This document shows positions 1,817 through 34,550 of a DNA stretch of 64,000 bases, piece by piece. Numbering within the stretch: the first letter of the stretch is position 1; each line of letters begins with the position of its first letter. This DNA is from Amphiscolops sp. MND2022 (Eukaryota): NCBI GenBank assembly GCA_964187785.1, contig OZ076409.1:61010001-61074000 (forward strand), written 5' to 3'. A program made the translations under genes and the position numbers. Under the pieces are notes generated by a model. The model made no database searches. It was not told the origin of the DNA and saw only the letters and a list, made by a program, of their open reading frames with translations.

Positions 1817-2350
1817 CCATGACACTAATACGGTATATCAAAATTTACATATTGACGTACTACCCCCTTTGGTAGTTGTTTTCGTACAGTTTAAGATATG
1901 TATATGGTTTCCACGACACATGTATAATGATATGGTCCTACTTTCCACAGTCGCTTTCGTGGCCATCGAACAGTGAATGCTATTTTGGTGGAATCCAAGA
2001 CAATATGCTCAAAATGGTGGAAACCAGGACAATACAGTCAGATTTAAATATTGACGTACTACCCCCTTTGGTAGTTGTTTTCTTACAGTTTAAGATTAGT
2101 ATGCGGTTTCCACGACACATGTATAAAGTTAGGGTCTTACTTTCCACAGTCGTTTTAGCTCATTCGTTGAATGTGATACTACGAAAATGGCAGTTTATCA
2201 AAATCTGCCAGATTTTGATGACAAGCTAGATAATATTAAACGCCATGTTATTCGAAAACGCCATTCAAACATTGAGAAATTTTTCCTTGACCATAGGACG
2301 GCATAATGGATTTTAAATTTTGACGTACTACAATACAGTCAGAATTAAAC
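1817..2350 (+). repeat. Family A repeat block (199-bp unit, ~1.5 units plus flanking module)
   Basis: Unit ATATTGACGTACTACCCCCTTTGGTAGTTGTTTTC...CAATACAGTCAGATTTAA starts at ~1849 and again at ~2048. Confidence 0.95.
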
Positions 2351-2544
2351 CTTGTGTCTTATTTTCCCCTGCGGTCGCTTGGGGAGGGGGCATTTTGCGC
2401 AATTAATGACGAAATACAATTACCTTTGAAAAAGACGGCATGGTAAAAGCCATTTACAATTAAATAATTAGAACCAAACACTTTAATCTAACTTTATTCT
2501 GACATCAAAGCAGTATTTCAACCAATAAGGGTTAACCAAAAAGT

Positions 2545-2985
2545 TTGGCTTTCAATTACATTTCTTTCATTCTTGCCAAACAAACTCAAACGATCCAGTC
2601 TCTATTCTTTTTTGTCATCATTCAGTCTCTTGTTCTGCCATCAATCAGCCTCTCTTACCAGGTCATCTGTACTCGGTTTCTCCGCAAACCCTCTTCTGCA
2701 CCCAGTCTCTCTCCACAATTCATACATCTGTACTCATTTTCGCTTCTTGCTTCAATGGATAAAGTCATCTCACAAAATGGCGAAAACGGAGTTAACAAAT
2801 TACCTGGAAAGTCGCATGCCCCACGCAAAGTTGGGTTTTGCTACTACTGCCAAGTGTTCTACCCCAACGGGAAAACAAAGTACGAAGTTACCCAAAAAAA
2901 CACGTACGATGAAGAGATCATTTTTGATGACATCTGGAGACCGAACAATAATCTTCACGTCAAGCCTTTTAGGGCTCAGCTCTAA
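2545..2985 (+). CDS. Hypothetical small protein in a repeat-bracketed cassette (first ATG 2754, ~76 aa, CxxC)
   Basis: ORF is conserved in the duplicate at 9274-9714. No recognisable domain, and an overlapping frame (2573-3004) is equally open. Confidence 0.25.
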   Translation: MAFNYISFILAKQTQTIQSLFFFVIIQSLVLPSISLSYQVICTRFLRKPSSAPSLSPQFIHLYSFSLLASMDKVISQNGENGVNKLPGKSHAPRKVGFCYYCQVFYPNGKTKYEVTQKNTYDEEIIFDDIWRPNNNLHVKPFRAQL

Positions 2986-3319
2986 ACACAACCAGTACCC
3001 CTGAAATCAAATCCAGTACAGCAGAAATCCAGAGAAGAAATTAAAAGCCCTCTCGAGCCACTCTTTCACTACTGCTTCAACAGAAGAAACTTGTTGATTT
3101 GTTCTTTTCATTTATATTTTTGTATTTAGATGATCAATTAATTTTATTCATATACAGTCATTTTCGATGCAAAGCTCTAAATTGTTTGAGTTACCGTAGA
3201 CCGAGAAACGCGCAGAGAGAGGAAGATGAATTATATATTGCACAAATATTCGTGGACAAAAAAGTAAAGCTAGAGCCAGTAAATTTGGCTAACGAAGTCC
3301 TAGTCTAATTAAAACAAAA

Positions 3320-3770
3320 CATTGAAAACAAGTTGGCAAGGCATTTTGATGTAAAATGGCATTTGTTCATAATTGTCTTTTTGTCAAAATATGGCAGATT
3401 TTTATCAACTGCCATTTTTCGAAAGCATTTCACGAATGAGCTAGTTCTTGAATGGTCCTAAAATGATTGTGGAAAGTAAGACCATATCGTTATACATGTG
3501 TCGTGGAAACCGCATACTAATCTTAAACTGTAAGAAAACAACTACCAAAGGGGGTAGTACGTCAATATTTAAATCTGACTGTATTTTCCTGGTTTCCACC
3601 ATTTTGAGCATATTGTCTTGGATTCCACCAAAATAGCATTCACTGTTCGATGGCCACGAAAGCGACTGTGGAAAGTAGGACCATATCATTATACATGTGT
3701 CGTGGAAACCATATACATATCTTAAACTGTACGAAAACAACTACCAAAGGGGGTAGTACGTCAATATGTA
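3320..3770 (-). repeat. Family A repeat block, inverted
   Basis: Reverse complement of the 1849-2160 units, followed by the shared TGGCAG-rich flank. Confidence 0.95.
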
Positions 3771-3794
3771 AAAGTATGTAACAGTATGTATTTT

Positions 3795-3910
3795 AAAAAC
3801 CAAGGAAGGAGCCAAAATCTCCAGATTACCTGCGCCTTGGCGTGAGAAATTTAACTCGTTTAGTGTCGATACTAGAAATTACCTTTACATGGATGAACGG
3901 TTGGTTATCC
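3795..3910 (+). pseudogene. Short gypsy pol fragment
   Basis: Translates KTKEGAKISRLPAPWREKFNSFSVDTRNYLYMDERLVI, homologous to KINRLPTPWREKYKCLSLDANDFVYMDERLVI in ORF 17418-17930. Confidence 0.8.
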
Positions 3911-4106
3911 TGTTAACTCGGAGAAGATATGGTAAGAAAGATGAATTAAAAGTAATACAAACACAATCGTTAATGTATGAACTATTCACTATCTGTATCA
4001 TAGAGTTCGACTTCAACTAATGTTCATACTGTAAAGTTCTTCATCGTAGACATTGGCAGGTACTATGAACTAATTAGTTCATCTTTTTAGTGACGTCTAC
4101 TTCTCA
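3911..4106 (-). repeat. Putative 3' LTR of the minus-strand gypsy element
   Basis: Bounded by TG (3911) and CA (4105-4106). A polypurine tract (GGGGGGAA on minus, 4107-4114) abuts it, and it lies downstream of the integrase ORF. Confidence 0.65.
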
Positions 4107-4261
4107 TTCCCCCCTTTGTAAATCAGGGAAACCATTGTTGAGCTTCTGTGGGTTCCCACTTGACTTTGGCATCGGCTGTTGGGTTTTCCTTTTTGATTTT
4201 CGGAAAGGGTTGTCGCAGGAATCGTTGTAGTGGGCTGGAGAACTCTAAACGACTTAACCAA

Positions 4262-6412
4262 TTAGAAATACTCTACCCCTCCTAACTTTACAGTTCGTTT
4301 AGCGCCTTTTATTCTACTTGATCTACGAAGGTCAGGTGACTCTGTTTGCGTTTTATGGTTTTCTAATTCCTTTTTGTCTACTATTTTTAAGTTACCTCTT
4401 TTAGGGTTTGTTTTCCCTTTCTTCGGAGTGGCGTCGGTATTCGCAGTGGCCCGTATTGGCGTCTGCTGTTCGCCTTCCGGTTGTTTCGGTTGTGCGCCGT
4501 AACTGGTGCTACATTGTACCGGCGTAGACGGTGGCGGTGTGCGTATCTCGGGTGTGGTTTCTTCTTCGGGCCGTAGTGTTTCCGCTGTGACGGTAGTGTT
4601 ACTTGCTTGCGGTCCCTGTTCTTCCGTTGATTTGTCTTGTCCGTTGCTTGTTACTATGACATCGCCGTAGGTCGATCTTTTCTCTGGCATTGTTGGAAGG
4701 GTGTAGCTGCATCCCGGTTCATCGGTGGTACCGTATACTCGTTTGTGGGTATCGCAGTACTTTCCTTGGCTAAATTTTCCGCATCTGGCACAGCGGTTTG
4801 TGGGTTTCCTCTTTTCCTCTGACTTTTTCGGCAGCTGAAATTTTATCGGTTTCGAAGCTAATTTTTTATGAATTATTTTTCCGTCTGATGTTGTTATAGT
4901 GTGTTTGGTTTCATTCACGGCTGTCAGTATCTTGTTGGTTTTAAATTTGCATTTCATTGCGTTTGGTTTGTTTTCTTTTTCAAAAAATTGGTACTGTTTA
5001 AATTCCTTGCTTACCGATCTGTTTCTTTTCTTCGAGTCGTTAAGAATCAGATAGTCTGCCATTTCTCCCTCTGAGTCGTTGATTGTAAACATCTGTAGCT
5101 CAGTGGGTTGTGCTGAAACGTAATTGGTCAGTGTCTTTTTCCAATTGGATAGAAGACATTCTGATCGGCCGATTAGACTGGTTATTGCCGTGCGTGGCTT
5201 ACGTCCGTAGTGCATTTGGAATGGCGTCATATTCAACTTACTATGCGGAGTTTGTCTAATTGTTTTGATTGCCAATTTAACACCTTCTTCAAATGTTAGG
5301 CCGTCTGCCATATTAGCTCTAGTTAATGACTTAATTGTCCGTATCGTTCTTTCTACATGTAGATTCGGTGTACATCTAATGCGTTTTATATTTTCTTGGT
5401 TACAAAATTCTTTGAATTCGTTACTTTTAAAACAACTACCGTTGTCGGTGCGTACGCTCCGTGGTGTCCCGTTATCTGAACAGTATTCCGTTAAAAATTT
5501 TAAAACTGTCCGTGTGTCGGTGTTTTTACAAATTTTGGCGGTGGGCCATTTGCTAAAACGGTCGACTGCGACTAAAATATATACATCGCCGCGAGTCTTT
5601 GATTTTATTGGACCGGCAAAGTCCAATTGTATTTCTTGATTCGGTTCGGACAAATTTTCTAAATAGTTTTTCTCCGTTGACGGTAATTGCGTTGTTAAAT
5701 TCTTACCTGACGACCTGCAGCTGGGACAGTTTTCCGCTTTTTCCTTTATCTCCCGATAGAGGCCTGGCCACCAGAAGGCTGTGGATAATTGCTCCATCTT
5801 TGTGGCCGATGGGTGTCCTTGATGGAGCATGGCGATGATTGTGCTTCTCATTGCTTCGGGTATAACGATCTTGTCGTTATAGAAGAGTAGGCCGAATCGG
5901 GTTGTCAGGTGATGTCTGTGTGGCCGATAGGGATAAAAGATCCCCTCAATCTGGTTCTTTTCGACGGCAGTGATAGCATTCAAGATTTTTGTGTCTCTCG
6001 CCGTTTCTTCTACTAACATCGGCAAGTCAAGTGCAAAATCTTTTTCGACTTTCTTGATGGTTTCCTCTGTCCGCTCATTGTGTTCGTCGTCTAGGTTGTT
6101 CGTCTTTACAGTTTGTTTCAGTCGGATTAGGTTTATTGTTTCGTGTTTCCGAAACTTTTTGATGGCGTTTGTGGGACATTTTTCTTGTGTGACATTGCTC
6201 GTTTGGCTTTCAGTGTCGGATGATTGTGCTATCCACGATTCATAATTGTTCTGTTGGAACTCTTTCAGTGGCGTCGTACCCAGCGTATCGCAAAAACTGA
6301 AGAATCTGTTGTATATTTGTACATTTAATTCAACAATTCTTTTTCGTACTTGCTGTGAGGGTCGGTATTCTTGAAGTCTTTCGTTGTCTGTCCCTTTTCC
6401 CACGATTCTCAA
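4262..6412 (-). CDS. pol: Gypsy integrase region (HHCC zinc finger + rve core), frameshifted from upstream pol
   Basis: HQGH...CPSC, QLDFAGP, VDRFSKW, TDNG and VERTIRTIK motifs. Confidence 0.9.
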   Translation of the reverse strand: MRIVGKGTDNERLQEYRPSQQVRKRIVELNVQIYNRFFSFCDTLGTTPLKEFQQNNYESWIAQSSDTESQTSNVTQEKCPTNAIKKFRKHETINLIRLKQTVKTNNLDDEHNERTEETIKKVEKDFALDLPMLVEETARDTKILNAITAVEKNQIEGIFYPYRPHRHHLTTRFGLLFYNDKIVIPEAMRSTIIAMLHQGHPSATKMEQLSTAFWWPGLYREIKEKAENCPSCRSSGKNLTTQLPSTEKNYLENLSEPNQEIQLDFAGPIKSKTRGDVYILVAVDRFSKWPTAKICKNTDTRTVLKFLTEYCSDNGTPRSVRTDNGSCFKSNEFKEFCNQENIKRIRCTPNLHVERTIRTIKSLTRANMADGLTFEEGVKLAIKTIRQTPHSKLNMTPFQMHYGRKPRTAITSLIGRSECLLSNWKKTLTNYVSAQPTELQMFTINDSEGEMADYLILNDSKKRNRSVSKEFKQYQFFEKENKPNAMKCKFKTNKILTAVNETKHTITTSDGKIIHKKLASKPIKFQLPKKSEEKRKPTNRCARCGKFSQGKYCDTHKRVYGTTDEPGCSYTLPTMPEKRSTYGDVIVTSNGQDKSTEEQGPQASNTTVTAETLRPEEETTPEIRTPPPSTPVQCSTSYGAQPKQPEGEQQTPIRATANTDATPKKGKTNPKRGNLKIVDKKELENHKTQTESPDLRRSSRIKGAKRTVKLGGVEYF

Positions 6413-7429
6413 TTTTTCGGGTTTCAGTAGTCTCTTTCTCTCTGTCCAGAGTCTGAAGGTGTCTGGTGAATGCCCTCTTTTCTTGAATATGAAGTCATGT
6501 CAATTCCGTTTATTTTGTCCATATTGGATGGCTTTACTGATCTATTTGAAGAATTCACGGATGCGATTTGATTAACACCGTTCAGTGGTATCGAAGTTTC
6601 GAGCAATTGAGTTTGTCTATTTTGTTCACGCTTACATGTGCCGTGTTGTGATTGGTCGATTTTTTGTCTCGGCTTTGTTCGTTCTGTGAATCGTTTTATG
6701 CTTACGTTCGTTTGAATGAAATCGAATAAGCCGTGTATTTGGTTTATTACGAACTCTTCTTCGGATTCCGTTTCGTTTTGACCGTTAAAGTTATTCTCCG
6801 CTGCGCTTTCATCGGTGTTTACGATCGGGTGTCGGCTTAAGTAGTCCGTCAATGGGATGTTTTTACCGGCGGTATATTGAACATTTACATCGAAGTGGCT
6901 TAATCTGTCTAACCACCGTGTTAACCTGGCGCTGTACTGTTTGTGCACCCTGTTCCGTTTTAGCAACGGTTGTAGGACAGGTTATTCTTGGACAGGTTAT
7001 TGATGAACTTCTGTATTTTTTTTGTGGTTTTGTTTAATTCCGCTGTATTAATTATAGGCGGTATTATCGTTACCGGAGAGCCAGTGTCAATAATAAATTC
7101 TATTGGCTGTCCTTGGACCAATAGTATCGCTTTGTAGAAGTCGATCCGATTTATGCCGTTGACGGATTGGATGTGATCAATTTCGGGCCATGATTCGGTG
7201 TCACTGTCCGTTGACGGTTCTTTTTGTATCCGGCTGACGGTCTTGGATTTACACACTTTGGCAAAGTGACCCATCTTCTTGCAGTTATTACACTGTGCTC
7301 TCCGTGCTGGGCAAATATGTTCCATTGACCAATTTGGTTTACCGCAAAAGCGACAATTACGATTTGATATTTTCTTCTTCCACGTTTCGGTGGTTTTTTG
7401 TTTCCGTATTGGTTGTGTGTTTCGACCGT

Positions 7430-7872
7430 TTCGACGCTTTGGGAATCCGCCGAATGAAATGCAAAACAATACGTTTAGTTGCTGTTGCCTTAACTTCGAG
7501 ATACAGTTCATAATACATTGTTATCTCCCCTTCTTTTCTTCTTGAGTACTGCCTCTCAGCTGTCTTTAACAACCTCACTTGACGTCTCTGACCCTTCTAG
7601 TACCTCTTCCTCAATTGGCAATTCGGCCTCATTTAGCATTTCTTGACTATTTGGCAAGTTGGCTTGTTTTGGCTTTTCTTCTTCACTGCTGCTATTTTCA
7701 TCTTCCGATACTCCCTGCCTTTTTGACGGTCCCGGGTTATTCGCCTCTTTTCTCTCGATTGCTATATCTCTTTGGGATAATACCACAGGGCTTCCTCGGC
7801 TTGGCAGAATTGTCACAGTATGGTCCGATTCTCTAATTGGCTGAGCCGTTTTCCTTTTGAATGTTTCCTCCA
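7430..7872 (-). pseudogene. 3' tail fragment of another gypsy integrase ORF
   Basis: EETFKRKTAQPIRESDHTVTILP resembles ERAYKKKKGVLLEQSNHTINFLP in ORF 16225-16959. It abuts family B repeats at 7873. Confidence 0.55.
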
Positions 7873-8260
7873 ATTTTTTTACTCACGATTGGGACCAAAA
7901 TATCACAAAACCTTTTTTTCATTTTAGTATTCTAAAAGGCCTCCTTTTTGACCTCACGAAAGATATTATGGACATATTTCGTCCCTCTGACTTCTTCTAG
8001 CAACGAAATTCGGTTAAAAAAGTATTTCAAAGGTGAAATTATTCGTGAATAATTTTGGTCCCAATCGTGAGTAATTTTTTTACTCACGATTGGGACCAAA
8101 ATATCAAAAAATCTTTTTTTCATTTTAGTATTCTGAAAGGCCTCCTTTTTGTCCTCACGAAAGATATTATGGACATATTTCGTCCCTCTGACTTCTTCTA
8201 GCAACGGAACTCGGCTAAAAGTAATTCAAAGGTGAAATTAATCTTGAATAATTTTGGTCA
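7873..8260 (+). repeat. Family B tandem repeat (~201-bp unit, 2 units) with hairpin junction
   Basis: ACTCACGATTGGGACCAAAA at 7881 and 8082; perfect 22-bp-arm inverted repeat at 8053-8101. Confidence 0.9.
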
Positions 8261-8772
8261 CAAATTGTCACAAAGTTTGATCCTGGTTTCACAAAATTAT
8301 TGACTGATCTTACATTGTTTTTTTAATAACATGGCAGTCATACGAAATGTCACTCAAAATCAAAATTTGGCAGATTATGCTAAACTACTAATTGTTAGAA
8401 TGGTTACAATTTATCATGTTTTGATCCTCCAGTATGTCAGATGACTCTCATCCTTTTATGGTAAGCTATAGTTCGATAATTTGAAGCAAACCCGTGAACA
8501 GTTTCTAACTACATGCACACTTGTCAAAAGAGAACGCTACTCTCTCTCCTGATTCCTTGGTCAACCATAGTCCGTGAAAAGTCACGTTTAGTTCGTAATT
8601 TGCAATTTTGTGCTACCTACATGTAGTTGAGTAACTGCTCGTTTATTTATCATTTCTTGTTGAAACTTTGTTTGATTTTGATTCATTGCCACTTTTGCTA
8701 CTTCATTCCTCTTTGTGCAAGGCTCTCGAGACATACTTATCTATCCGAACTCTCAATACTCAAGGTAAGGGT

Positions 8773-10378
8773 TTAAATATTGACGTACTACCACCTTTGG
8801 TAGTTGTTTTCTCAAAGTTTAGGATATGTATGCGGTTTCCACGACACATGTATAAAGTTAGGGTCTTACTTTCCACAGTCGTTTTAGCTCATTCGTTGAA
8901 TGTGATACTACGAAAATGGCAGTTTATCAAAATCTGCCAGATTTTGATGACAAGCTAGATAATATTAAACGCCATGTTATTCGAAAACGCCATTCAAACA
9001 TTGAGAAATTTTTCCTTGACCATAGGACGGCATAATGGATTTTAAATTTTGACGTACTACAATACAGTCAGAATTAAACCTTGTGTCTTATTTTCCCCTG
9101 CGGTCGCTTGGGGAGGGGGCATTTTGCGCAATTAATGACGAAATACAATTACCTTTGAAAAAGACGGCATGGTAAAAGCCATTTACAATTAAATAATTAG
9201 AACCAAACACTTTAATCTAACTTTATTCTGACATCAAAGCAGTATTTCAACCAATAAGGGTTAACCAAAAAGTTTGGCTTTCAATTACATTTCTTTCATT
9301 CTTGCCAAACAAACTCAAACGATCCAGTCTCTATTCTTTTTTGTCATCATTCAGTCTCTTGTTCTGCCATCAATCAGCCTCTCTTACCAGGTCATCTGTA
9401 CTCGGTTTCTCCGCAAACCCTCTTCTGCACCCAGTCTCTCTCCACAATTCATACATCTGTACTCATTTTCGCTTCTTGCTTCAATGGATAAAGTCATCTC
9501 ACAAAATGGCGAAAACGGAGTTAACAAATTACCTGGAAAGTCGCATGCCCCACGCAAAGTTGGGTTTTGCTACTACTGCCAAGTGTTCTACCCCAACGGG
9601 AAAACAAAGTACGAAGTTACCCAAAAAAACACGTACGATGAAGAGATCATTTTCGATGACATCTGGAGACCGAACAATAATCTTCACGTCAAGCCTTTTA
9701 GGGCTCAGCTCTAAACAGAACCAGTACCCCTGAAATCAAATCCAGTACAGCAGAAATCCAAAGAAGAAATTATAAGCCCTCTCGAGCCACTCTTTCACTA
9801 CTGCTTCAACAGAAGAAACTTGTTGATTTGTTCTTTTCATATATATTTTTGTATTTAGATGATCAATTAATTTTATTCATATACAGTCATTTTCGATGCA
9901 AAGCTCTAAATTGTTTGAGTTACCGTAGACCGAGAAACGCGCAGAGAGAGGAAGATGAATTATATATTGCACAAATACTCGTGGACAAAAAAGTAGAGCT
10001 AGAGCCAGTAAATTTGGCTAACGATGTCCTAGTCTAATTAAAACAAAACATTGAAAACAAGTTGGCAAGGCATTTTGATGTAAAATGGCATTTGTTCATA
10101 ATTGTCTTTTTGTCAAAATATGGCAGATTTTTATCAACTGCCAATTTTCGAAAGCATTTCACGAATGAGCTAGTTCTTGAATGGTCCTAAAACGATTGTG
10201 GAAAGTAAGACCATATCGTTATACATGTGTCGTGGAAACCGCATACTAATCTTAAACTGTAAGAAAACAACTACCAAAGGGGGTAGTACGTCAATATTTA
10301 AATCTGACTGTAATGTCCTGGTTTCCACCATTTTGAGCATATTGTCTTGGATTCCACCAAAATAGCATTCACTGTTCA
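8773..10378 (+). repeat. Near-identical duplicate of cassette ~2044-3648 (A(+) / small ORF / A(-))
   Basis: Constant offset of 6729. ORF 9274-9714 translates identically to 2545-2985, and there are only scattered SNPs. Confidence 0.95.
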
Positions 10379-10826
10379 ATGTCTAACAATTCTGAGTCTT
10401 TAACAAAGTAATACAATGTAAAATTTGGTTTCGAAGTTATGCAAGTTTTTGCTAGGCAGTATTCCATTGCTAGCTAACAATTAATTAGAATCCTAATTAC
10501 GGACAAGTGAGATCAACAATTTCTCTTTGTTCAGCTATTGCTATTGAACCGTGAATCAGAACAATTTGAAGCTGAATATGAACATTGTAAACGCGACCAG
10601 GCCGCCCATATTTTGTCCCCGGTGTCCCAACCATCATGACATGTAATAGCAACGAATACTTTTCTCCTTGACTTGTAATAAACACAAAATTTGTCTCAAA
10701 AGTCCTAGTCTCACGAAAACACCTATCAATTTTGCATGGCATTTTTTGAAAACATGGCATTTATTCATAACTGTCTTGTCATTAAATGTGGCAGATTTTG
10801 ATCAATTGCCATTTTTTCATTAGCAC
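10379..10826. repeat. Inter-repeat spacer module C, copy 1 (others at 14211-14659 and inverted at ~31485-32060)
   Basis: Near-identical 87-codon frames at 10497-10760(-), 14329-14592(-) and 31552-31815(+). Confidence 0.9.
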
Positions 10827-11397
10827 TCAACGAATGAGCTCGTTTTTGAATGGTCCCAAAACGACTATAGAAAGTAAGACCATATCTTTATACATGTGTC
10901 GTGGAAACCGCATACTAATCTTAAACTGTAAGAAAACAACTACCAAAGGGGGTAGTACGTCAATATTTAAATCTGACTGTAATGTCCTGGTTTCCACCAT
11001 TTTGAGCATATTGTCTTGGATTCCACCAAAATAGCATTCACTGTTCGATGGCCACGAAAGCGACTGTGGAAAGTAGGACCGTATCAGTATACATGTGTCG
11101 TGGAAACCACATACATATCTTAAACTGTAAGAAAACAACTACCAAAGGGGGTAGTACGTCAATATTTAAATCTGACTGTAATGTCCTGGTTTCCACCATT
11201 TTGAGCATATTGTCTTGGATTCCACCAAAATAGCATTCACTGTTCGATGGCCACGAAAGCGACTGTGGAAAGTAGGACCGTATCAGTATACATGTGTCGT
11301 GGAAACCACATACATATCTTAAACTGTAAGAAAACAACTACCAAAGGGGGTAGTACGTCAATATTCAAATCTGACTGTTTTGTCTAGGTTTCCACCA
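10827..11397 (-). repeat. Family A tandem array, ~2.7 units
   Basis: GCCACGAAAGCGACTGTGG at 11051 and 11250 gives a period of 199. Confidence 0.95.
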
Positions 11398-11478
11398 GTG
11401 TGAGTTTATTGTCCATTTTGAGGACTTTAAAAAAATTCAATGCAAATGATGTTTTTCTTTTTTAAACCTATATTCCAG

Positions 11479-14400: not shown

Positions 14401-15757
14401 AAGCTGAATATGAACATTGTAAACGCGACCAGGCCGCCCATATTTTGTCCCCGGTGTCCCAACCATCATGACATGTAATAGCAACGAATACTTTTCTCCT
14501 TGACTTGTAATAAACACAAAATTTGTCTCAAAAGTCCTAGTCTCACGAAAACACCTATCAATTTTGCATGGCATTTTTTGAAAACATGGCATTTATTCAT
14601 AACTGTCTTGTCATCAAAATGTGGCAGATTTTGATCAATTGCCATTTTTTCATTAGCACTCAACGAATGAGCTCGTTCTTGAATGGTCCCAAAACGACTA
14701 TAGAAAGTAAGACCATATCTTTATACATGTGTCGTGGAAACCGCATACTAATCTTAAACTGTAAGAAAACAACTACCAAAGGGGGTAGTACGTCAATATT
14801 TAAATCTGACTGTATTGTCCTGGTTTCCACCATTTTGAGCATATTGTCTTGGATTCCACCAAAATAGCATTCACTGTTCGATGGCCACGAAAGCGACTGT
14901 GGAAAGTAGGACCATATCTTTATACATGTGTCGTGGAAACCATATACATATCTTAAACTGTAAGAAAACAACTACCAAAGGGGGTACGTCAACATTCAAA
15001 TCTGACAGTTTTGTACTGGTTTCCACCAAAAAATTTTTTTACTCACGATTGGAACCAAAAAATAATTCTGTCTTTCCTCAATCAAATCGTTACAGGTGAC
15101 TCAATTGCAGTGGGGACCAATTTTTTGGCCCTTGGACACATTCCTATGATACGGGAGATGATGATCCTTGACCATTCGAGGACTTACGCGGATGACAAAT
15201 TCCCTGATCTTCCCGAGCTGCTGGCATTGCTTCTTCTCACTGCAACAGAAAAAATTCAGAGAGCTTGTCCTTTCAAGTTTCGTTTGTTCGACGCAGTTAA
15301 AACAATTGTTAATGAAAAGGCCGTCCAGGAGGTTTTTACAATTTGACTTGAAAAACTGTTCATTTTAAATTCATAGTGTTTCACTTGTTCAACTTATTTT
15401 CTTTTTAATTTGCAGATTCATCCACAGTTTTGCATGAGCAAGTTGCGATTGCTTCTGGGCAGGAAACAACCAACCGGAACCCTCCAAGATGCCACAATCT
15501 CCAAAAAATATCTGGCGTGCGTCAGCATTAAATGTCCCGGTGACTCCTACGCAACCATCCCCGATTACATTAACAATGTAGATGTTCTGAGTGAGTCGCG
15601 CGAGACCCGTGTCTCGACAGTTGAACTTCTGAGGGAGAATTCGCAAACTCCAAAGTTTTGCGAAAACAAATTTCGACCTCATGCACTACCGATTATGGCT
15701 TCACTAAAAGGCATTAGAACTATCCCTAAAGAGGATGAACTCTTTGATATATGTTGA
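11479..15757 (+). CDS. C2H2 zinc-finger + JmjC histone-demethylase-like protein (KDM2/KDM7-PHF8-like), 7 exons, ~636 aa
   Basis: Exons 11479-11854, 11999-12456, 12635-12739, 12819-13096, 13251-13366, 15096-15331 and 15416-15757 join in frame via GT-AG. Motifs: CTNGTC..LQRHEKQC, CENC..RHQK, CLSC..RNH; TTWHQDFSATSVCYTVLRGEKIFFLVKPT; MPANYLHFVLT; GDSIAVGTNFL. The HxD...H metal triad is intact. Confidence 0.88.
13400..13852 (-). pseudogene. Gypsy pol (RNase H C-terminal) fragment inside JmjC intron 5
   Basis: Minus strand reads WVDRFLPYDFHIEQTPGRTLGIADYLSRHPS*. The left boundary is approximate. Confidence 0.8.
13853..15062 (-). repeat. A(-) / spacer C / A(-) module plus a half family B hairpin, within JmjC intron 5
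   Basis: 13993-14990 duplicates ~10170-11160; TTTTACTCACGATTGGAACCAAAA at ~15037-15060. Confidence 0.92.
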
Positions 15758-21352: not shown

Positions 21353-22004
21353 GATTGCAGTGATTTTTGCAAGCTCCCAAATAAATGTTAGAGGGTCCAG
21401 GATATGGACAACTTCGTTCGTTTCGAACTTTTGAAGAAGTATTACTGCGTTTAAAGGTTGAATAGTTTGAGACTGACTGGAATAGTCACCTTATCAATAG
21501 TTCAATTAACGTCCACTGGGGAAATAAAGAGAAATTCCATTTCCTGCGTCAATTTCAAAGCTGGGGCAAAATGACGCCGCTTATAATTGAAGCAGAGGTG
21601 ATGCTTAATTACTGTTGCTGCTCAGATCCAATGAACACCCACTGGCAAAGTAAAGTAGTGCCTGGCAATTGATGGCATATTCAATTGGGGCGTCAAGTCG
21701 ACACCGCTTATGATGAGGCGGCAAGTTGAAACCGCTTAGGATTGAAGTAGGGACGATGCTTACTGTTTATCCTAAGGTTCAATTAATACTCACCTTTGAA
21801 ATTAATTAGGAGATCTTTGGGGCATTTCATCGCCGCCTATAATTAAAAAAGATGACGCTCGATTTTGGTTGATAGCGATTGTTTGATAAAGATTTGCTCA
21901 GTTTCTTTCAAACCATTTTCACAATCAGTAGCTTCCAGTCTTCTCGAATATACATCACAGTTCCTTCCAAGTTTTTGAATCGCTTGGTTGCAACTGAATA
22001 ACTA

Positions 22005-25000: not shown

Positions 25001-25732
25001 GTGTTGTAGGTCTTACTGCGATGAAAGGAAGCGAAGTTGAGTAATTGTAAATTCAGGCAATGTACGTGCGAATGTCACTATTCAGTAGAATGGCAAATCA
25101 GTTAAAAATGGCATTACTATTGGTTAGGGACTAACCAAAAGTACTGCCATTTTTATCTGATTTGCTATTTTAGTGAATAGTGACATTTACACAAACATTG
25201 CCTGAATTTACAATTACTCAACTTCGCTTCCTTTCATCGCAGTAAGACCTACAACACAAAAGTCATCGTTGCAACAAGATCTATCTAGATCATCTAGCAC
25301 ACCATCAAGAACATCTGGAACTTGTAAAGCCTTGTGATCAGATACGACTCCAAATTGTGTACCACATACATAATTTTCAATATGCTCACACGACAGCTAG
25401 TAACTAATTCATTTTTGGATCATTTCATTCCAAAATCTGTTGAAAATTGTGGGCTTTTGTAAGGTATTCTTGAAACTTCTTTGTTCCAGGTGAAAGGTCC
25501 CGGACGGAGACTGATCAACGCTTCCTCCGAGATATGTGAAAGTCACCCAAATATTCTATGTTTGGGACGCCTCATTAACCACTGTTCCAAAGATGCAAAC
25601 ATAAAGCAAACTGACATTTTGCTTTATGACCAGTCCCGAGTTTGCTGCTTCAGGGCTATCAGAGATATAAGCCCTTTCGAAGAATTGAAATTCGATTACG
25701 AGGACCCAACAGCGCGGTCCCTTTTTTCGTGA
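22005..25732 (+). CDS. SET-domain lysine methyltransferase-like protein (PR-Set7/SETD8-like), 4 exons, ~626 aa
   Basis: Exons 22005-22749, 23744-23973, 24116-24778 and 25490-25732 join in frame via GT-AG. SET motifs: GRGVVSTQKF..VLDYHG, LGRLINHCS, FRAIRDISPFEELKFDY. Confidence 0.87.
22866..23565 (-). repeat. Family A fragments inside SET gene intron 1
   Basis: Partial unit at 22866-22942; internally deleted unit plus flank at 23313-23565. Confidence 0.85.
25000..25258. mobile_element. ~260-bp palindromic MITE-like element in SET intron 3
   Basis: TGTGTTGTAGGTCTTACTGCGATGAAAGGAAGCGAAGTTGAG... is mirrored by ...CTCAACTTCGCTTCCTTTCATCGCAGTAAGACCTACAACACA. Centre is TTGGTTAGGGACTAACCAA. Confidence 0.85.
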
Positions 25733-25914
25733 AAAGCGACTTGCTGACAAATATCTTCATGTGCTTTTTCAAGAGTCTGTTTATTCTGAACACTTTTTTT
25801 TTGGTTTTTTAAAAATACTCGTTTTGTTCACTTTTCGAATAATTATCCGATATATATGAACCAGATTTTCAACCAGATGGTCAGATTAAGATCAGTCAAT
25901 TATCCATACCACCT

Positions 25915-26385
25915 TTGTCCTGGATTCCACCAAAATAGCATTCACTGTTCGATGGCCACGAAAGCGACTGTGGAAAGTAGGACCATATCTTTATAAATGT
26001 GTCGTGGAAACCGCTTACATATCTTAAACTGTAAGAAAACAACTACCAAAGGGGGTAGTACGTCAATATTTAAATCTGACTGTATTGTCCTGGTTTCCAC
26101 CAATTTGAGCATATTGTCCTGGATTCCACCAAAATAGCATTCACTGTTCGATGGCCACGAAAGCGACTGTGGAAAGTAGGACCATATCTTTATAAATGTG
26201 TCGTGGAAACCATATACATATCTTAAACTGTGAGAAAACAACTACCAAAGGGGGTAGTACGTCAATATTTAAAATCTAATATACCCTATTATTGTCATGG
26301 AAATATTGCTCAATTTTGAATGACGTTTTAGAAAAATCTGGCATTTAAAAAAATCTGGCTTGCCAGCAAAATCTGGCAAATTTTT
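25915..26385 (-). repeat. Family A block upstream of the transposase-like gene
   Basis: About 1.8 units (25915-26272), then the GTCATGGAAA...AAAATCTGGCA flank. Confidence 0.93.
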
Positions 26386-26727
26386 TTAAACTGCAGTTTT
26401 TTGACTACTTTACTTTAACGAATGAGCTTCGTGTTACGTCCATAATCATATCAGTTTGTATTGGCTTGGTTTTAAAATTTATTAGTCACGAAAATAGGGT
26501 TTCCACGTCACGTAAAGAGAAAGTTGTTCAAGAGCTTCTTTTCATTATGGTATTGAAAGTCCCTGTTTTTGTGAACGTGTCGGTTCATCTTAACTCCGAA
26601 TCTCAACTTCTGAATCAAAGTGTCATTTCGCAAATATATTTCAGATAGTCACTGTGACCTTCATACATCTTCATCACTAGTTGAGTTGAACACAACGTTG
26701 TTGAAATCTCATATCAACGCTCTTTTA

Positions 26728-29700
26728 ATGGACCCCTTAGCACTTTGGAATGCCCATTCTGTACAAATCGATGAAAATTTGCTGTTTATCGACAGCAAAA
26801 TGTTCGAAGTCATGGCCGAGAAACGATTCACGAACAAATACAGAAAATTCGAAAAGATCATTGACGATGCATTCGCCGGGTGTGGGTTAAATAACAAAGA
26901 CTTACTCCGGAGAATTCCCATGAAAGGACAAAGCAAACCGACTGTGTGTATAGCAGTAAGTAACTTTTTTTCTAATTACCATTTTTGCAAGTGTCTATCT
27001 TTTTCGTAAAAGTCGTACTTCGCTGGCGTTTTGGATGCTTTTGGAGATTTGTGAATGTTCATTTAAATTGATATAATTGTGCAAACCGCGCGTTTTCTCT
27101 TTTTTTGTCCACCACCAATTGGCTACACGCCACGTTCTTGCAATTTAGTGGTCGCTCGCATTCGAAATCAATGCATTCATTTTGGAAAAAACTACGAACC
27201 ACGATATGAAAATAAGTTCGGAAATTCATTTTGAAATTTTTTTCTCTTCATCTTTGTTTTTTGCCCTCATCCCCAAAAACTAAAAATACCTTTACTAAAT
27301 ACATAACTGAAACATTTACATATCCACCACAAAAACCGTTTTCGAAAAAATATTCTTTTCAGGGAAAAATTGCGATGTTTTTAATCTTCCGAGGGTTCAA
27401 GGATTTCCAATGGACCGACGCAAGGAAGAGATTTGTGGAATGCTTCGTCCCTCGATATTTGATTCCTTACGAAGATACTTTCAATTTTCCTCTTCTTGTA
27501 ACACCAACCTTGAATCCCCTTGCAATACGTACCTCGGATCTGTTTTCACCACCACCAACAATGGTGCTTGAAACAATGAATTCGCTTGCAACACCAAGAA
27601 TGGACCTTGAAACAATGAATTCGCTTGCAACACCAAGAATGGACCTTGAAACAATGAATTCGCTTGCAACACCAAGAATGAACCTTGAAACCATGGATTC
27701 GCATGCACCACCAACAATGGACCTTGAAACCATGGATTCGCATGCACCACCAACAATGGACCCTGGAACCATGGATTCGCATGCACCACCAACAATGGAC
27801 CCTGGAACCATGGATTCGCGTGCACCACCAACAATGGACCCTGGAACCATGGATTCGCATGCACCACCAACAATGGACCCTGGAACCATGGATTCGCATG
27901 CACCACCAGCATTGGACCCTGGAACCATGGATTCGCATGCACCACCAACAATGGACCCTGGAACCATGGATTCGCATGCACCACCAACAATGGACCCTGG
28001 AACCATGGATTCGCATGCACCACCAACAATGGACCTTGAAACAATGGATTCGCATGCACCACCAACAATGTACCTTGATGCAGCGACAAGCCCATACCCC
28101 CAAAAGAGGAGAACAAAAAAATTGAACAAAGAAGCAGCCACTTGTTTCTGGAAAAAGGTCATCGATGAGGCCAACGATAATAAAGAAATTGGGTTCACTG
28201 AGTTTGTAGAACAAGTGAAAGACAACATTGTTAAACGGAAATACCAGGGATTCACAAAGAAGGAAGACGTGAATGTGGTGAAAATTCTAATCGACCGACT
28301 TTTTGAGAATCGAGGATCGACCAAGGAATTCAGTGACATTTTATCACTTACTGCTCAAACTGGAAATACAGAGGCAGTCATAAAACTTATCAGATCGAAA
28401 CTTTCGGTAGTTGGCTTGGGATACAACGTAGTACCTTGTATACGCTTGATCAAGAAATCAACAGCTCAAATCCAGACCTATTTTGTTTCACTATGCCATC
28501 CCGAAAGAACGTTCTCCGGTTTCCGATGCGATCTGATAAAATGTGTTGAGCTGGCCGCATACTTGCTCGGAATGTATGATTTATGTGGTTTGAGAATTGA
28601 TATCTGGGGCGACGGTTGTGAAATTGGAGGCCTGGAAACAACCCGTTTTGCCTTTCGAGTGTTATCGGAAAAAATTAGTTGCCAGTCATCAAGTTCAGTG
28701 TTCTGTTTTGCATCGTATCGAGGAAAAGACAGCCGATTCGCGATGGAACAGAACCTTGGACCAACTATAGCTGGTGATCAAAGTTCGGGTTGGCTCTACC
28801 AGAAAACGTCGGAGTTGTCAGATCGTGGTGTTAAACTAACCTACAGTGGAGATACACCATTTTTGCTACGCTTGATACTTGGAATTTCCTGTGAAACGAA
28901 TTTCGAATCAAAAATGCCACTTCATGTTCCTGATAATAGCTTTTTGCCAACAAATTGCCATCCTGAAACAGGTCTGAGAACCGATCTTAAGATACCTTTC
29001 CGAGAGGAACTGCCAAAAACATCCCTTGTTTATTTCCAAGACGTGCGATGTATATGCCCTGACCCGACGCACATGATCACCAGATGTGTTGAAAACGACT
29101 TGAGGAGAGTGGCGCAGAAAATAATCACTGACAAGTATCCCGATTATGGCCCCTCACTCAAAGCCTTTGAAGAAAATCTTACACGACGTGATGCAAAAAG
29201 GCCATATTTCCAGTTCAATGTGAACACAAAACTAGGTTCTGGTGTTGGTACTGTGAACAGTGTGTCATTAGCCGGAAGTAATGCCCTATCTATTATAGCA
29301 GAAAAAGAAGAATTGGCTGGCGCAAATGATTGTTCAATAGGGAATCTTTTTGAAGATGTTTGGGATCCCACAAACGATGTTGTTATTGGGAGTGAATCAG
29401 CTGCTAGTGCTCAAATACTAAAACAATTTCTCCCAGAACTTTTCGATAAGCCTCACCCTAGTGACAAGACATCCGCCAATCCATACATCTCGAAGACAGA
29501 TGCATGTGAATTGCTGCGCTCCAGCCTGAACCGCTGTGCAATTCTCTTGAGATCTGAGCAGTTTGACGCCCAATGCTACAAGAAATGGGCTGAAATATAT
29601 TATCAGACAAGCATTTTGTTATTTGGTGAATGCTCATTGACACCATATAAGTTGAAGCTCGCAATGATGCCGCAGATTGTAGAAGGAGGGTTTGTGGAAA

Positions 29701-30743
29701 GACCTTTTGACCACATGTGCGAAGGGCTTGAAAAATCCAATCATCACGCAAATCGCTATTTCCAGACAAAAACCATGCGTGGTGGCGGTAATATTTACCA
29801 TAAAGATCCTCTTTTCCTGGAATTGTCATCTTCATTTGGAAAATTCCTCCGTGCATCGATTGAATTGGAAACAATGAAGCATGATGGCTTGGAAATATCT
29901 GAAATACTTAAGAAACTTGTTGATGATTTGGAAGCAAAATACCCCGGACCAACATACCTCGAAATTTGCAAGACCCCAATTTCCTCGACTTCTCTTGCAA
30001 TCGGGAAATCGCATCCCGATTCCCAACTTTTAAGTGGTATGAGGTTCACTTCAATTGGAAGATTAGGGGTAGTCGATGGGATTTCGTTAACGAAGGATGT
30101 TCTGATTAAACTTATCAACGAAATGGGGGGCATATTCATTGAACACGATCAAGCAGACGCCCTCATGAAGACACATTCACGACTGCCTAATTGCTTCGTT
30201 CTGGTCAAAGACGAAGAAGACCTAGTAATCGCCACAGGATCTGTGCAAGAAATTGAAGAACTGAAAAAGAAGATGCCGCCGGCGAAAAAACTAAGACTTT
30301 CCACGTCCCAGTCTTCAGATTCGGACAGTCAATACCCATCATCGCAACTCACAGCAAAACAGAAAAAAGAAACTGCTCAATACTCACAAATTGCTCAGAA
30401 ATTTGCCCAAGGAGGTCTAACTTTTTTGAAGAAGAATTTTATTATGGATGTCAAAAAAGTAGTTACGTTGTTAGACCCCAAAGATTACACCATCGCCCCC
30501 GGAAGTAATTTTCGTCGAGCCAGAGTAAATGATATGAGACCACTCTTCCTTGATCAAATATCAGGGAAAAAATCAAACGAGAATATATCGGCTGTGGCTT
30601 ATCTCAAACGATACAGAAATGGACAAACGAGATTACCAAAACTCTTTTTCGAGAATGATGATGACACTTTTGCCGGAGAAATTGACAACATTGATGATGA
30701 CGACGACGACTTAGATGAAGAATGTTCTCAGATCACTTTGTAG
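26728..30743 (+). CDS. RAG1/Transib-like DDE transposase/recombinase with 13-aa repeats and C-terminal BRCT-like domain (~1200 aa, 2 exons)
   Basis: Uninterrupted ORF 27231-30743. Likely exon 1 is 26728-26955 (GTAAGT donor), spliced in phase to 27363. Ordered motifs IWGDG (D 28611), YSGDTPFL (D 28851), PDPTHMITR (29061-29072), LTPY and CEGLEKSNH (E 29730) parallel RAG1 D600, D708, DxxH795, TNY and SEGNE962SGN. BRCT-like LSGMRFTSIG..LIKLINEMGG..FIMD at ~30027-30450. Confidence 0.72.
27552..28076 (+). repeat. Coding minisatellite, 39-bp unit x ~13.5 (PPTMDPGTMDSHA)
   Basis: Directly visible tandem repeat in frame within the transposase-like ORF. Confidence 0.97.
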
Positions 30744-31029
30744 ACCCCAGAGTTCAACAAAAAATGGGACACCGTAATTATGTTGTGTTGATATTTGTGT
30801 TCATATCTAGCGATACATTACTATTTCAAAATAATACTATTAGAATTCTGTTCTTGAATTTGCGTATCTCTGTGATAAACATAACTCCAATTTCAAGTTG
30901 TGAAAGATTTTTCATACTCTGCTGAAGATCAGATACAGTGAAGAGAAACCAACACATCGTACCCCGTTACGTCGCGAGAAGTAGAGGTTATGATAAACCA
31001 TGGTAAACCAATCGAAAAGTTGGAGTTAA

Positions 31030-31484
31030 ACAAAATCTGCCAGATTTTATTTAAAAGCAAAACGAGGAAAAATGCCAGAAAATTATGAAACGCCATCCAA
31101 AATTGAACAATAGTTCCATGACACTAATACGGTTCTTTAAAATTTACATATTGAAATACTACTACCTTCGGTAGTTGTTTTCTTACAGTTTAAGATATGT
31201 ATGCGGTTTCCACGACACGTATAAAAATATGGTCTTACTTTCCACATTCGCTTTCGTGGCCATCGAACAGTGAATGCTATTTTGGTGGAATCCAAGACAA
31301 TATGCTCAAAATGGTGGAAACCAGGACAATACAGTCAGATTTAAATATTGACGTACTACCCCCTTTGGTAGTTGTTTTCTTACAGTTTAAGATTAGTATG
31401 CGGTTTCCACGACACATGTATAAAGATATGGTCTTACTTTCTATAGTCGTTTTGGGACCATTCAAAAACGAGCTCATTCGTTGA
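31030..31484 (+). repeat. Family A block downstream of the transposase-like gene (inverted relative to 25915-26385)
   Basis: AAAATCTGCCAGATTTT..CCATGACACTAATACGG flank, then units at ~31149 and ~31346. Confidence 0.93.
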
Positions 31485-32107
31485 GTGCTAATGAAAAAAT
31501 GGCAATTGATCAAAATCTGCCATATTTTGATGACAAGACAGTTATGAATAAATGCCATGTTTTCAAAAAATGCCATGCAAAATTGACAGGTGTTTTCGTG
31601 AGACTAGGACTTTTGAGACAAATTTTGTGTTTATTACAAGTCAAGGAGAAAAGTATTCGTTGCTATTACATGTCATGATGGTTGGGACACCGGGGACAAA
31701 ATATGGGCGGCCTGGTCGCGTTTACAATGTTCATATTCAGCTTCAAAATGTTCTGATTCACGGTTCAATAGCAATAGCTGAACAAAGAGAAATTGTTGAT
31801 CTCACTTGTCCGTAATTAGGATTCTAATTAATTGTTAGCCCAAAAAGGTTATTTATCAGTGTCCGCGTGTTCATTAAAGAAAGCGAGTAATGCATTAAAG
31901 CCACTTTCAGTGTGAAAAAACGCGAAGGTACCGTGAACAAAAGGGACGTTCCCTTTAGTTGAAATCTTTCAATGTTTGCTGAAATTTCGGTTACTGGTTT
32001 AACCAGTCTGGTTATCATTCATTTGGAATACTGCCTAGCAAAAACGTCCATAATTTCGAAAAAAATTTTCTAACCATAATTTTGATACCTTCATATTATA
32101 TCGCAAA

Positions 32108-32347
32108 ATGCCTCAGTGCATGGTCTGCCATGAAGAAACACGAACGAGCCTCCACGACCAACACTTCCTCTGTGAGGGATGCCGCAATCGTTGGATTGAG
32201 GTGAAGGATCGCGACAACGAGCGCAGAGGGTGGGCCCAGGCGAGATTAGAAGTTGCGTGCCCCCTTTGCAGGAAGAACTGTGTCTTAAGGAACGGGCCCA
32301 GTGGAAGTGTAAGAATCGATCCGTTTTTCGGATTTAGGATGCGCTGA
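32108..32347 (+). CDS. Small RING-finger protein (79 aa), putative E3 ligase
   Basis: CMVC...HDQHFLCEGC...W...CPLCR gives a Cx2C-Hx2H-x2-Cx2C-Cx2C RING-like ligand pattern. ATG in AAAATG context, and the segment is more GC-rich than its flanks. Confidence 0.72.
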   Translation: MPQCMVCHEETRTSLHDQHFLCEGCRNRWIEVKDRDNERRGWAQARLEVACPLCRKNCVLRNGPSGSVRIDPFFGFRMR

Positions 32348-32479
32348 TTGTCATTTAGACTTCTAGTACTAACCATTCCTAGTGCTAAACGACCCCACCA
32401 TACATAAACTTTTAGTTCTCCCCAGTATACAGTGCTAAGTGTGTTGTAGAAACACCAGTGGTTTTAGTTTTTATTACAG

Positions 32480-32870
32480 TTATTCGTCGTTCATCGTTCC
32501 GCTGCTGTCTTGATTACAAATTGACGCAATTATGCCTTTAAGTGTTTTTCTTTCTTGTTCGCATAATTCGTTCTCGCGTTCGCTTTCGCCGCCGGCCGTC
32601 CGTTCGCTCTCTCCTGCCACTTTTTCCTCACCTGTCATCTTTTCTCTGATTGGTTGCTTTGTTACTTCTTGCCGTTTCTGCTGATCTAAAACAATTTTCT
32701 CATTATCAATTTTGTTTACTGTAAACCAGTTATTCCATAGTTCTTTTATTTGGTTATTTTGGTGACTTGGCGAGGGATACCTGGAAAAATAGTCAGCCAT
32801 TCCTATCGTTCTGCCTGGTGAGTGCGTTACTGTGAATTGGAACGGTAATAACCTATCTACCCAGCGGGTA
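32480..32870 (-). pseudogene. Gypsy pol (RNase H C-terminal) fragment
   Basis: TRWVDRLLPFQFTVTHSPGRTIGMADYFSRYPS on minus. Confidence 0.82.
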
Positions 32871-33444
32871 GATATCTACCTATCTCTCTACTTGCAAGGG
32901 TGTTAAAAAAATAATTGGTCGAAAAATGATTAGCAATAAAATAAACACAATTTTTTATTATTAGGAGGTAGCAATTACAATTATTTATTTTTGGATGCAA
33001 ATAATTGATTGTACTAAAGAACACAGTATTGAGACGCGTGCTAATGAGAGCGTCGGAGCGTCAAATGCATCAAATCATTATCATAATAACCAATGCCATA
33101 TTAGCCAATGCCAAAATATCCAACGTTACAAAATAGCTTATGCGGAAATAGCCAACGTGACATAATAATGACATATTCTTGAGGGGCAGATATACACATA
33201 GTTTCGAAAATTCTCTATTGCCCAAACTACCGCCAGGAGTTCTAATTCTTTTATTGAATAGTTTTGTTCAAAGGTGGTTAGAAATTCCCGTTCTGTTTTA
33301 GGTGCTGTGTCCGGCGAATTTCAGAAAGCTGGCAATCCTGACACAGCTGACAATCCCCCTGGTGTTGGCACTTCCCCGCCTGCAGACGTGTATCGCAGCG
33401 CCATGTGGAAGGACCCGAAGACATTAGTGTCAACATTCAACTGA

Positions 33445-34487
33445 ACTTTTGAATTGCATTTTAAGCCAAATTTCGTTGTTATTAGAAGTCAAACAGTTAA
33501 AATATATCCCTAATATCTTTCGTGAGGACAAAAAGGAGGCCTTTCAGTATACTAAAATGAAAAAAGATTTTGTGATGTTTTGGTCCCAATCGTGAGTAAA
33601 AAAATTACTCACGATTGGGACCAAAATTAGTCATGATTAATTTCACTTTTGAATTGCATTTTTAGCCAAAATTCGTTGCTATTAGAAGTTAGAGAGACAA
33701 ATCATGTCCATAATACCTTTCGAGCGAACAAAAGCCGGCCTCTAAAATTGGTAACCAATCGAAAATGTAGATTTAATGAAATGGTACATTTAATGTACCA
33801 TTTCATTAAATTCTGCCAGTTTTCAATAGTGAGCCAGATATGAATAAATGTCAGAATATTCTAAAACGTCATTGAATTTTGAGCAATTTTTCCATGACAC
33901 TAATACGGTATATCAAAATTTCATTGTTGACGTACAATAATACAGTCAGAATTAAATATTAACGTACTACCCCCTTCGGTAGTTGTTTTCTTACAGTTTA
34001 AGATATGTATGCGGTTTCCGCGACACATGTATAATGATATGGTCTTACTTTCCACAGTCGCTTTCGTGGCCATCGAACAGTGAATGCTATTTTGATGGAA
34101 ACAAGGACAATACAGTCAGATTTAAATATTGACGTACTACCCCCTTTGGTAGTTGTTTTCTTACAGTTTAAGATATGTATATGGTTTCCACGACACATGT
34201 ATAAAGACATGGTCTTACTTTCCACAATCGTTTTAGGACCATTCAAGAACGAACTCATTCGTTGAATGTTTATGGAAAAATGGCAGTTGATAAAAATCTG
34301 CTATATTTTGATGACAAGACAGTTATAAATAAATGCCATTTTTTAATAAAATGCTTGCAAAATTGTTTTCATGGTTTTCGTGAGACAAAGACTTTTTAAA
34401 GCCAAACTTTGTTGCTATTGGAAGTCAGACATTTAAAATATGTCCAAAAAATCTTTCGTGAGGACGAAAAAGAGGCCTCTTAGTATG
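33445..34487 (+). repeat. Composite B + A repeat block, last in the island
   Basis: Hairpin at 33578-33626; A units at ~33957-34265. 34265-34403 is the reverse complement of 13853-13990, and a B fragment runs to ~34487. Confidence 0.92.
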
Positions 34488-34550
34488 CCTATTTTCTCAA
34501 TTTATAAAAGAGGAAATGTTATATAGCAAATAACAAATCGTCCAATCAGA

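Follow-up and report, generated by a model that had tools for sequence, protein, structure and literature searches.

Transposon systems that oppose host silencing are known mainly from plant VANC proteins and, as a candidate, the TET cargo of fungal elements. Among DDE transposons, the CMCT clade comprises EnSpm/CACTA, Mirage and Chapaev, together with Transib, Plavaka, ESTA and Lanisha (Kojima 2025, PMC12730594), and the zinc motifs C(2)C and H(3-4)H are stated to be common to all CMCT lineages and RAG1 (PMC12730594). Transib elements have target site duplications (TSDs) of 5 bp and terminal inverted repeats (TIRs) that start with a CAC heptamer (PMC1131882, PMC4411706). PlavakaB has CATCA..TGATG ends and 2-3-bp TSDs (PMC12730594). 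SET genes occur as cargo of HarbingerS and of oomycete MuDR (Kojima and Jurka 2014, cited in PMC12730594). In VANDAL elements, the VANC proteins bind motifs that recur in tandem in non-coding regions of the element itself (PMC5735166), and enlarged En/Spm elements of Chondrus crispus are 16-20 kb long with 4-5 open reading frames (ORFs) (PMC6431247). The subject of this report is a large TIR transposon, family A, that carries JmjC and SET genes and lies in a 64,000-nucleotide stretch of the Amphiscolops sp. MND2022 genome (assembly GCA_964187785.1, contig OZ076409.1, positions 61,010,001 to 61,074,000), called the window below.

The window holds the right 34.5 kb of one copy (Table 1). Its left ~12.5 kb and its left TIR are hidden by an N gap at 1490-1689, the sole gap in the window, as the initial annotation had said of the left end. 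Four full copies on other chromosomes (C8, C10, C12 and C13; 46,931-47,772 bp) are collinear with window positions 1690-36158 at 99.3-99.7% identity, and each extends ~12.5 kb further left, which gives a full length of ~47 kb. Their flanks are mutually unrelated, and all have a perfect 20-bp TIR, CATTACAGTGCACAGGCAAG. TSDs of 2 bp and varied sequence are present at 21 of 24 end pairs (3/4 full copies, 13/14 further pairs, 3/4 in families C and D, and 2/2 in family F; these families are described below). The three exceptions involve an end next to a gap, a pair in which both ends are of the left type, and a single copy of family C. Lengths of 1-10 bp were tried on 14 end pairs and gave matches of 1-2 bp only; the 5-bp TSD foreseen by the initial annotation is therefore rejected in favor of a 2-bp duplication. 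The TT directly after the right TIR at 36158 is likely the target duplication of the window copy, whose left partner is invisible.

Copies are numerous. The exact TIR 16-mer has 892 genome matches, against one for the reversed control, and seven miniature inverted-repeat transposable elements (MITEs) of 139-1245 bp, built from the element ends, were confirmed. TIR pairs around a transposase on C1 span 40.0, 47.1, 47.3, 48.1, 48.3 and 53.3 kb. The transposase core gave 85 scored matches among 1278 genome candidates, the best 65 being 91-100% identical. Among the matches listed, a JmjC match lies on the same strand 8-21 kb upstream of 56 of these 65, and 57 of 78 JmjC matches of at least 90% identity have a transposase match within 25 kb. 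Many transposase matches also have the 199-bp repeat A ~17.5 kb upstream. All five genes (transposase, JmjC, SET, RING and X) have open frames in the copies of the window, C12 and C13; frameshifts interrupt SET, X and RING in the C8 copy and X in the C10 copy. The exon models are predictions in which every intron is GT-AG and no frame has an internal stop; the DDE, JmjC, SET and RING genes are open as first described, and so is X.

The common boundaries, TIRs, TSDs, differing flanks, dozens of near-identical copies, restriction of repeat A to elements, and five sister families whose cargo is the same and under purifying selection strongly support one large mobile unit with JmjC and SET genes. 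The initial annotation had proposed such a unit and had looked to co-occurrence of genes and repeats at several loci with common boundaries and TIRs, which the four full copies and the JmjC linkage (56/65) provide. With TIRs, TSDs, dispersed copies with common ends, and a transposase of RNase H fold with intact D-D-E, it is a class II DDE TIR element. Family A is an autonomous cut-and-paste DNA transposon that moves as one TIR-bounded unit with 2-bp TSDs. It has undergone a recent burst and also mobilizes MITEs.

Two further observations concern copies at other positions. A second, complete family A copy of 53.3 kb lies at G000:C1:60943752-60997042, ~14 kb left of the window gap, in the opposite orientation and with a TT duplication. 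An N gap also adjoins the right end of the C13 copy.

Sequence searches of Pfam and PDB gave no match to the transposase, and no Pfam transposase match was obtained among 69 homologues. The 376 relatives found are unnamed or "hypothetical", and none was found in viral contigs. BRCT_2 is matched in 10 of the 69 homologues; the window transposase by itself has no such match. An AF2 model made with the 69-sequence alignment reached a predicted local distance difference test score (pLDDT) of 90 (single-sequence fold: pLDDT 36). Foldseek ranked RAG1 first with this model (E 4e-7), and a wide structural search gave RAG1 at Z 17.0 (root-mean-square deviation 6.9, 437 aligned), BbRAG1L at 16.6, HzTransib at 11.3 and the P element at 10.1. 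The modeled fold is RAG1/Transib-like. The acidic D-D-E residues lie within WGD, SGD and EGLE/EGPE motifs that are conserved in six families, and judged from these motifs, not from structural alignment, they probably correspond to RAG1 D600/D708/E962. The C(2)C and H(3-4)H zinc motifs in the interval from the second D to the E are absent in 17 aligned homologues and in the six families, which retain D-x-x-H alone of this region. The copy number of the 39-bp minisatellite inside the gene varies, the C10 copy having one unit fewer.

The element resembles RAG1, Transib and RAGL in its transposase fold, its equivalent-looking D-D-E motifs and its TIRs starting CA. It differs from Transib and RAGL in its 2-bp TSD, where theirs is 5 bp, and in its terminus CATTACAG (CAT), where theirs is a CAC heptamer (PMC1131882). 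Its transposase lacks the zinc motifs of RAG1/Transib, has 9-14% sequence identity to these proteins and bears a BRCT-like tail. A RAG2-like gene, present in RAGL, was not recognized among the cargo ORFs scanned, none of which matched a kelch domain (X has no family match). Transib1_SP is about 4 kb long, whereas the element families are 17-47 kb. Because zinc motifs and 5-bp TSDs are absent, a BRCT-like tail is present, and the termini are CAT and not CAC, membership in Transib or RAGL is rejected despite the RAG1-core fold. The RAG1/Transib-like label given at first thus stands for the fold (Z 17.0 and 11.3) but not for membership.

Other systems resemble the element in part. As in CMCT members, it has 5'-CA..TG-3' termini, a TSD within 2-5 bp, subterminal motif arrays and epigenetic-enzyme cargo, which in fungal CMCT members is TET/JBP (PMC12730594), but it lacks C(2)C and H(3-4)H and its cargo is JmjC and SET. 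The 5-bp TSDs and CAC termini of Transib/RAGL and the CMCT zinc motifs are missing, yet the modeled fold is RAG1-like. HarbingerS and the oomycete MuDR are likewise DDE transposons with a SET histone methyltransferase gene, but their transposases belong to other superfamilies, and a demethylase partner is not mentioned in the available part of PMC12730594. JmjC has no matches in one supplement of that paper. Like the Arabidopsis VANDAL elements, in which VANC is proposed to act at such sites (PMC5735166), the element has short motifs in tandem repeats of introns and intergenic regions; VANDAL is a MuDR element and VANC acts on DNA methylation, whereas the present element encodes recognizable histone enzymes. 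The Chondrus En/Spm elements match families C, D and F in size and gene number, but families A and B reach 40-53 kb. JmjC and demethylase do not occur in that review (PMC6431247). A JmjC-carrying or JmjC-plus-SET transposon was not found in the literature search, outside which Repbase Reports and most subscription journals lay, and a database entry may exist. SET cargo on transposons is known; of JmjC plus SET as a conserved kit, the literature searched yielded no example. The lineage is apparently an undescribed RAG1-fold branch with a fixed four-gene kit.

Six families (A, B, C, D, F and G) are present in the genome, with lengths of 17-47 kb and transposases that are 38-95% identical. The termini begin CATTACAGTG in all six. 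Family B is 39,994 bp long, C 17,118, D about 17,830 and F 18,948; G is covered without its left end. The kit common to all six consists of the transposase, X, a KDM2/7-type JmjC gene and a SETD8-type SET gene. Its order is rearranged between families, and repeat A flanks the rearrangements. Identity to family A ranks the families in the same way for the four genes: B 90-95%, C/D 50-76%, G 40-55% and F 31-42%. Unrooted trees, which carry no clade test, recover (A,B),(C,D) for the transposase, X and SET; the JmjC tree, on 104 columns, is unresolved. In one copy that resembles family D (L098-L101, G000:C10:43.70-43.73 Mb), the transposase region is duplicated in tandem.

Ratios of nonsynonymous to synonymous rates (dN/dS) were calculated by the Nei-Gojobori method from tblastn-paired codons, with one copy per family and low-identity columns dropped. 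Between A and B they are 0.29 for the transposase (949 codons), JmjC (633) and SET (620), 0.35 for X, 0.11 for RING (79 codons) and 0.54 for the 149-aa ORF. Between C and D they are 0.11 for the transposase, 0.13 for JmjC and 0.10 for X; SET is saturated. JmjC, SET and X are therefore long-held parts of the element under selection. Of the six families, only A and B were found to have RING and the 149-aa ORF, so RING, which had been counted as part of a chromatin toolkit, is rejected as a core gene. The element gained RING, the gypsy pieces and its large size recently.

The JmjC domain is nearest to PHF8/KDM7 and KDM2A (E 4e-12 with a family C exon, E 7e-18 with family F) and retains the iron ligands and the 2-oxoglutarate Thr/Lys. 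H-x-D is present in all six families, and the third His was observed in A, B, C, F and G. Host KDM2 and KDM7 enzymes have PHD or CXXC domains. The PHD (KDM7) or CXXC/PHD/F-box (KDM2) partner domains were not found in the JmjC protein of the element, whose N-terminus gives C2H2-like zinc-finger matches below the cut-off. Resemblance to these enzymes makes it a putative histone demethylase. The KDM7-like gene of the host is a separate, single JHD locus on C4, 35% identical to the element JmjC over one aligned exon. Further JmjC loci of the host, which we take to be KDM4-, KDM5-, KDM6- and JMJD4-like, are also separate from the element, and the search found no long named homologues of the element protein.

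The SET domain is nearest to SETD8 in 14 of 14 PDB matches (best E 1.4e-4), and Pfam SET is above the cut-off. The YHG-type tyrosine and F-D-Y are present in all six families. At the position of SETD8 Tyr334, the mono-methylase switch, all six have Phe, as do two further multi-copy SETs and the top PDB match itself. A Tyr334-to-Phe change makes SETD8 a di-methylase, and PHF8 removes H4K20me1 and H3K9me1/2. A host SETD8 orthologue was not recognized among the 17 SET loci examined of at least 150. These SET-domain matches mostly form multi-copy groups with identical scores, and several are unlike the element SET (L153, L155, L156); additional SET-carrying mobile families are likely present in the genome. 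A further multi-copy family has JmjC and SET ~9.5 kb apart at L158 and L159 (G000:C1:27265430 and 27274947).

Gene X has no match in Pfam, PDB or Atlas. Its Trp-rich N-terminal domain looks Tudor-like, by eye only. A transposase-X complex prediction, run without alignments, scored 0.00. X is conserved in six families and also outside the source genome, where 12 metagenome contigs (1.1-7.4 kb) carry the transposase: on contig L110 (341-5582) an X homologue (23%, E 8e-20) lies head-to-head with the transposase, as in families C, D and F. The pairing therefore exists in another organism.

Comparison of the window with itself places repeats A and B within 1795-34486 and nowhere beyond. Repeat A spans this whole range, and its motif has no match in window 36159-64000. 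The end of the repeats at ~34.5 kb had been reported correctly, but the unit runs on to 36158 and is ~47 kb long, not 33 kb. A repeat-A 22-mer has 859 exact genome matches; 82 of the 83 on C1 are inside seven elements, and the idea of a free genome-wide repeat, which would have separated it from the genes, is rejected. The arrays are located between genes and in introns. Each unit has an inverted pair, GGTTTCCAC...GTGGAAACC, at 81-82-bp spacing, which is retained in A, B, C and D, and the motif in the form GGATTCCAC is clustered in both subterminal regions. Repeat A folds no better than shuffles (z -1.4), and Rfam gave no match.

The long-carried demethylase and methyltransferase genes suggest that the element rewrites its own chromatin to keep moving. 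The transposase would bind the TIRs and the subterminal GGATTCCAC-type motifs, and the zinc-finger JmjC protein (or X) would bind related motif pairs between and inside the element genes. JmjC may remove repressive mono/di-methyl marks, namely H3K9, H3K27 and H4K20me1 if it is KDM7/PHF8-like or H3K36 if it is KDM2-like, and the SETD8-like enzyme with its Phe switch would write a di-methyl mark, most likely at H4K20. Jointly the enzymes would set a chromatin state in which the element stays expressed and cuttable, as an enzymatic counterpart of VANDAL/VANC anti-silencing in plants. An anti-silencing purpose of the kit is plausible, and self-targeted histone demethylation and methylation on the element repeats probably, though with considerable room for doubt, keeps the element expressed and accessible. 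A bolder proposal is more tentative and could well be wrong: a new superfamily-level, zinc-module-free RAG1-fold branch would have an obligatory self-targeted writer, eraser and possibly reader (X) docking on its own repeats, and through this self-licensing the element could grow to ~50 kb without losing activity.

Several observations weigh against self-targeting. The substrates of the enzymes are assigned from similarity alone, the SET-SETD8 match is weak (E 1e-4), the family F SET has NYS instead of NHS, and tblastn detected no JmjC N-terminal zinc fingers in family F. The repeat does not extend to the whole lineage: family F is without its motifs, and in G the motif occurs but the 82-bp pair does not. 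Because the internal motif is similar to that of the ends, it may be no more than a site for the transposase. Neither JmjC nor SET was seen on any of the 12 short transposase-bearing metagenome contigs, and the kit is therefore shown in the source genome only.

Some of these points fit an explanation in which the enzymes work in trans or modify proteins other than histones, by methylating or demethylating the transposase, X or host silencing proteins or by weakening host silencing across the genome, and the repeats are only transposase sites or recombination debris. Long divergence from the host enzymes favors it, as do the end motif in repeat A, the position of the repeat beside gene rearrangements between families, and its absence from family F. 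Against it, families with 64-66% transposase identity have kept the motif spacing, a sign of a protein that binds in cis, and we consider this explanation unlikely. An equally unlikely one places the kit at the DNA-break step: SET would write H4K20me2 at excision or target sites, the BRCT tail and X would recruit or steer repair factors, and the cuts made by a very large element would be repaired and tolerated. H4K20me2 is read by 53BP1, and PHF8 acts on H4K20me1. That SETD8 is the nearest solved SET, that the Phe switch is kept and that BRCT occurs in transposase homologues are consistent with it, but the zinc fingers fused to JmjC and the element-specific intergenic repeats fit cis-targeting along the element body better.

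It is very improbable that JmjC and SET were captured from the host as passive, Pack-type cargo and play no part in mobility. The element does pick up passengers, and the gypsy pieces of A and B differ, but the two genes persist in all six families, among which transposase identity falls to 38%, with dN/dS of 0.29 and ~0.1, their catalytic residues are intact, and they are far from the host orthologue; this selection largely refutes passive capture. A segmental duplication or assembly artefact might be suspected from the N gaps at the left edge of the window copy and beside the right end of the C13 copy, but the copies on many chromosomes have sharp common ends with TIRs, their TSDs vary and their flanks are unrelated, which leaves it next to no probability. 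The interest of the element lies in its intact genes for a putative demethylase and methyltransferase, which selection has maintained in deeply diverged families, and in its candidate target repeats; four genes and one 199-bp repeat allow a direct test of whether transposons edit their own histone marks. If self-licensing is true, the transposon would have built a sequence-directed, enzymatic system of chromatin editing. The RAG1/Transib family also gains a zinc-free, BRCT-bearing branch with 2-bp TSDs, and the precise movement of about 47 kb by a DDE transposase has a bearing on cargo limits and tool development.

Table 1. Features of the family A element in the window (window coordinates; aa, amino acids).
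Feature	Position	Strand	Remarks
TIR DNA transposon family A, right 34.5 kb	1690..36158	+	collinear with four full copies
1.9-kb module	1844..3772		inverted repeat-A arms (315 nt, 98%), 149-aa ORF inside; partial second copy 8772-10381
Gypsy fragment, passenger	3774..7871	-	gag knuckle/protease, 745-aa integrase frame, no reverse transcriptase (RT) core
Other gypsy pieces	~13625-13850, 16225-17930, 32480-32875		inside element
Repeat A, 199 bp, largest array	10010..11414		
Repeat A, other arrays	1795-2340, 3281-3773, 8766-9070, 13853-15031, 19893-20447, 22868-22943, 23336-23574, 25915-26428, 31003-31839, 33792-34486		
JmjC gene	11479..15757	+	7 exons, 636 aa; N-terminal C2H2-like zinc fingers, KDM2/KDM7-type catalytic domain, H-x-D...H iron ligands
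Gene X	18709..21440	-	~420 aa; exons ~21440-21260 and 19791-18709, start uncertain
Repeat B, ~200 bp	20446..20849		further copies 7872-8278, 33430-33769
SET gene	22005..25732	+	4 exons, 626 aa; N-terminal region without assignment, SETD8/KMT5A-type SET domain, Phe at Y334 switch
Transposase gene	26728..30743	+	1202 aa; exons 26728-26955 and 27363-30743; RAG1-like DDE core, 13-aa repeat insert, BRCT-like C-terminal domain
39-bp minisatellite	27550..28078	+	in frame, inside transposase
RING-like ORF	32108..32347	+	79 aa, accessory, confined to families A and B; Pfam RING match below cut-off (E 8e-4)
232-bp subterminal tandem repeat	35121..35763		also once near left end of full copies; retained in 0.8-1.2-kb MITEs
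Right TIR, 20 bp, perfect	36139..36158	-	reads CATTACAGTGCACAGGCAAG on minus strand

The gypsy pieces are internal to the element, and the four full copies have them too, so they are rejected as independent later insertions at the window locus. The left part of full copies contains gypsy pieces as well. They had been described as uniformly broken relics around the genes; all are incomplete, but one keeps an open integrase frame of 745 aa. The pieces of families A and B come from different gypsy families. Because they differ, growth from ~18 kb to 40-50 kb is attributed to added repeats, duplicated modules and passengers. In both families the pieces are mainly the RNase H tail/integrase half, with some gag/protease, and none has an RT core. 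Gypsy classes that lack RT, a bias in capture or selection against RT could each produce this pattern. The 1.9-kb module is present in three copies per full A or B element, in both orientations, and may be a mini-element that moves within its host element.

To the right of the element, two gypsy elements with stops or frameshifts occur among window positions 36260-41211, 42206-58477 and 58809-63906. One of them lies between 1.9-kb direct repeats (42206-44086 and 56595-58477). Also outside the element are a 619-aa ORF at 45999-47858, followed by fragments that appear hAT-like by eye, and a 91-bp repeat region in the right part of the window.

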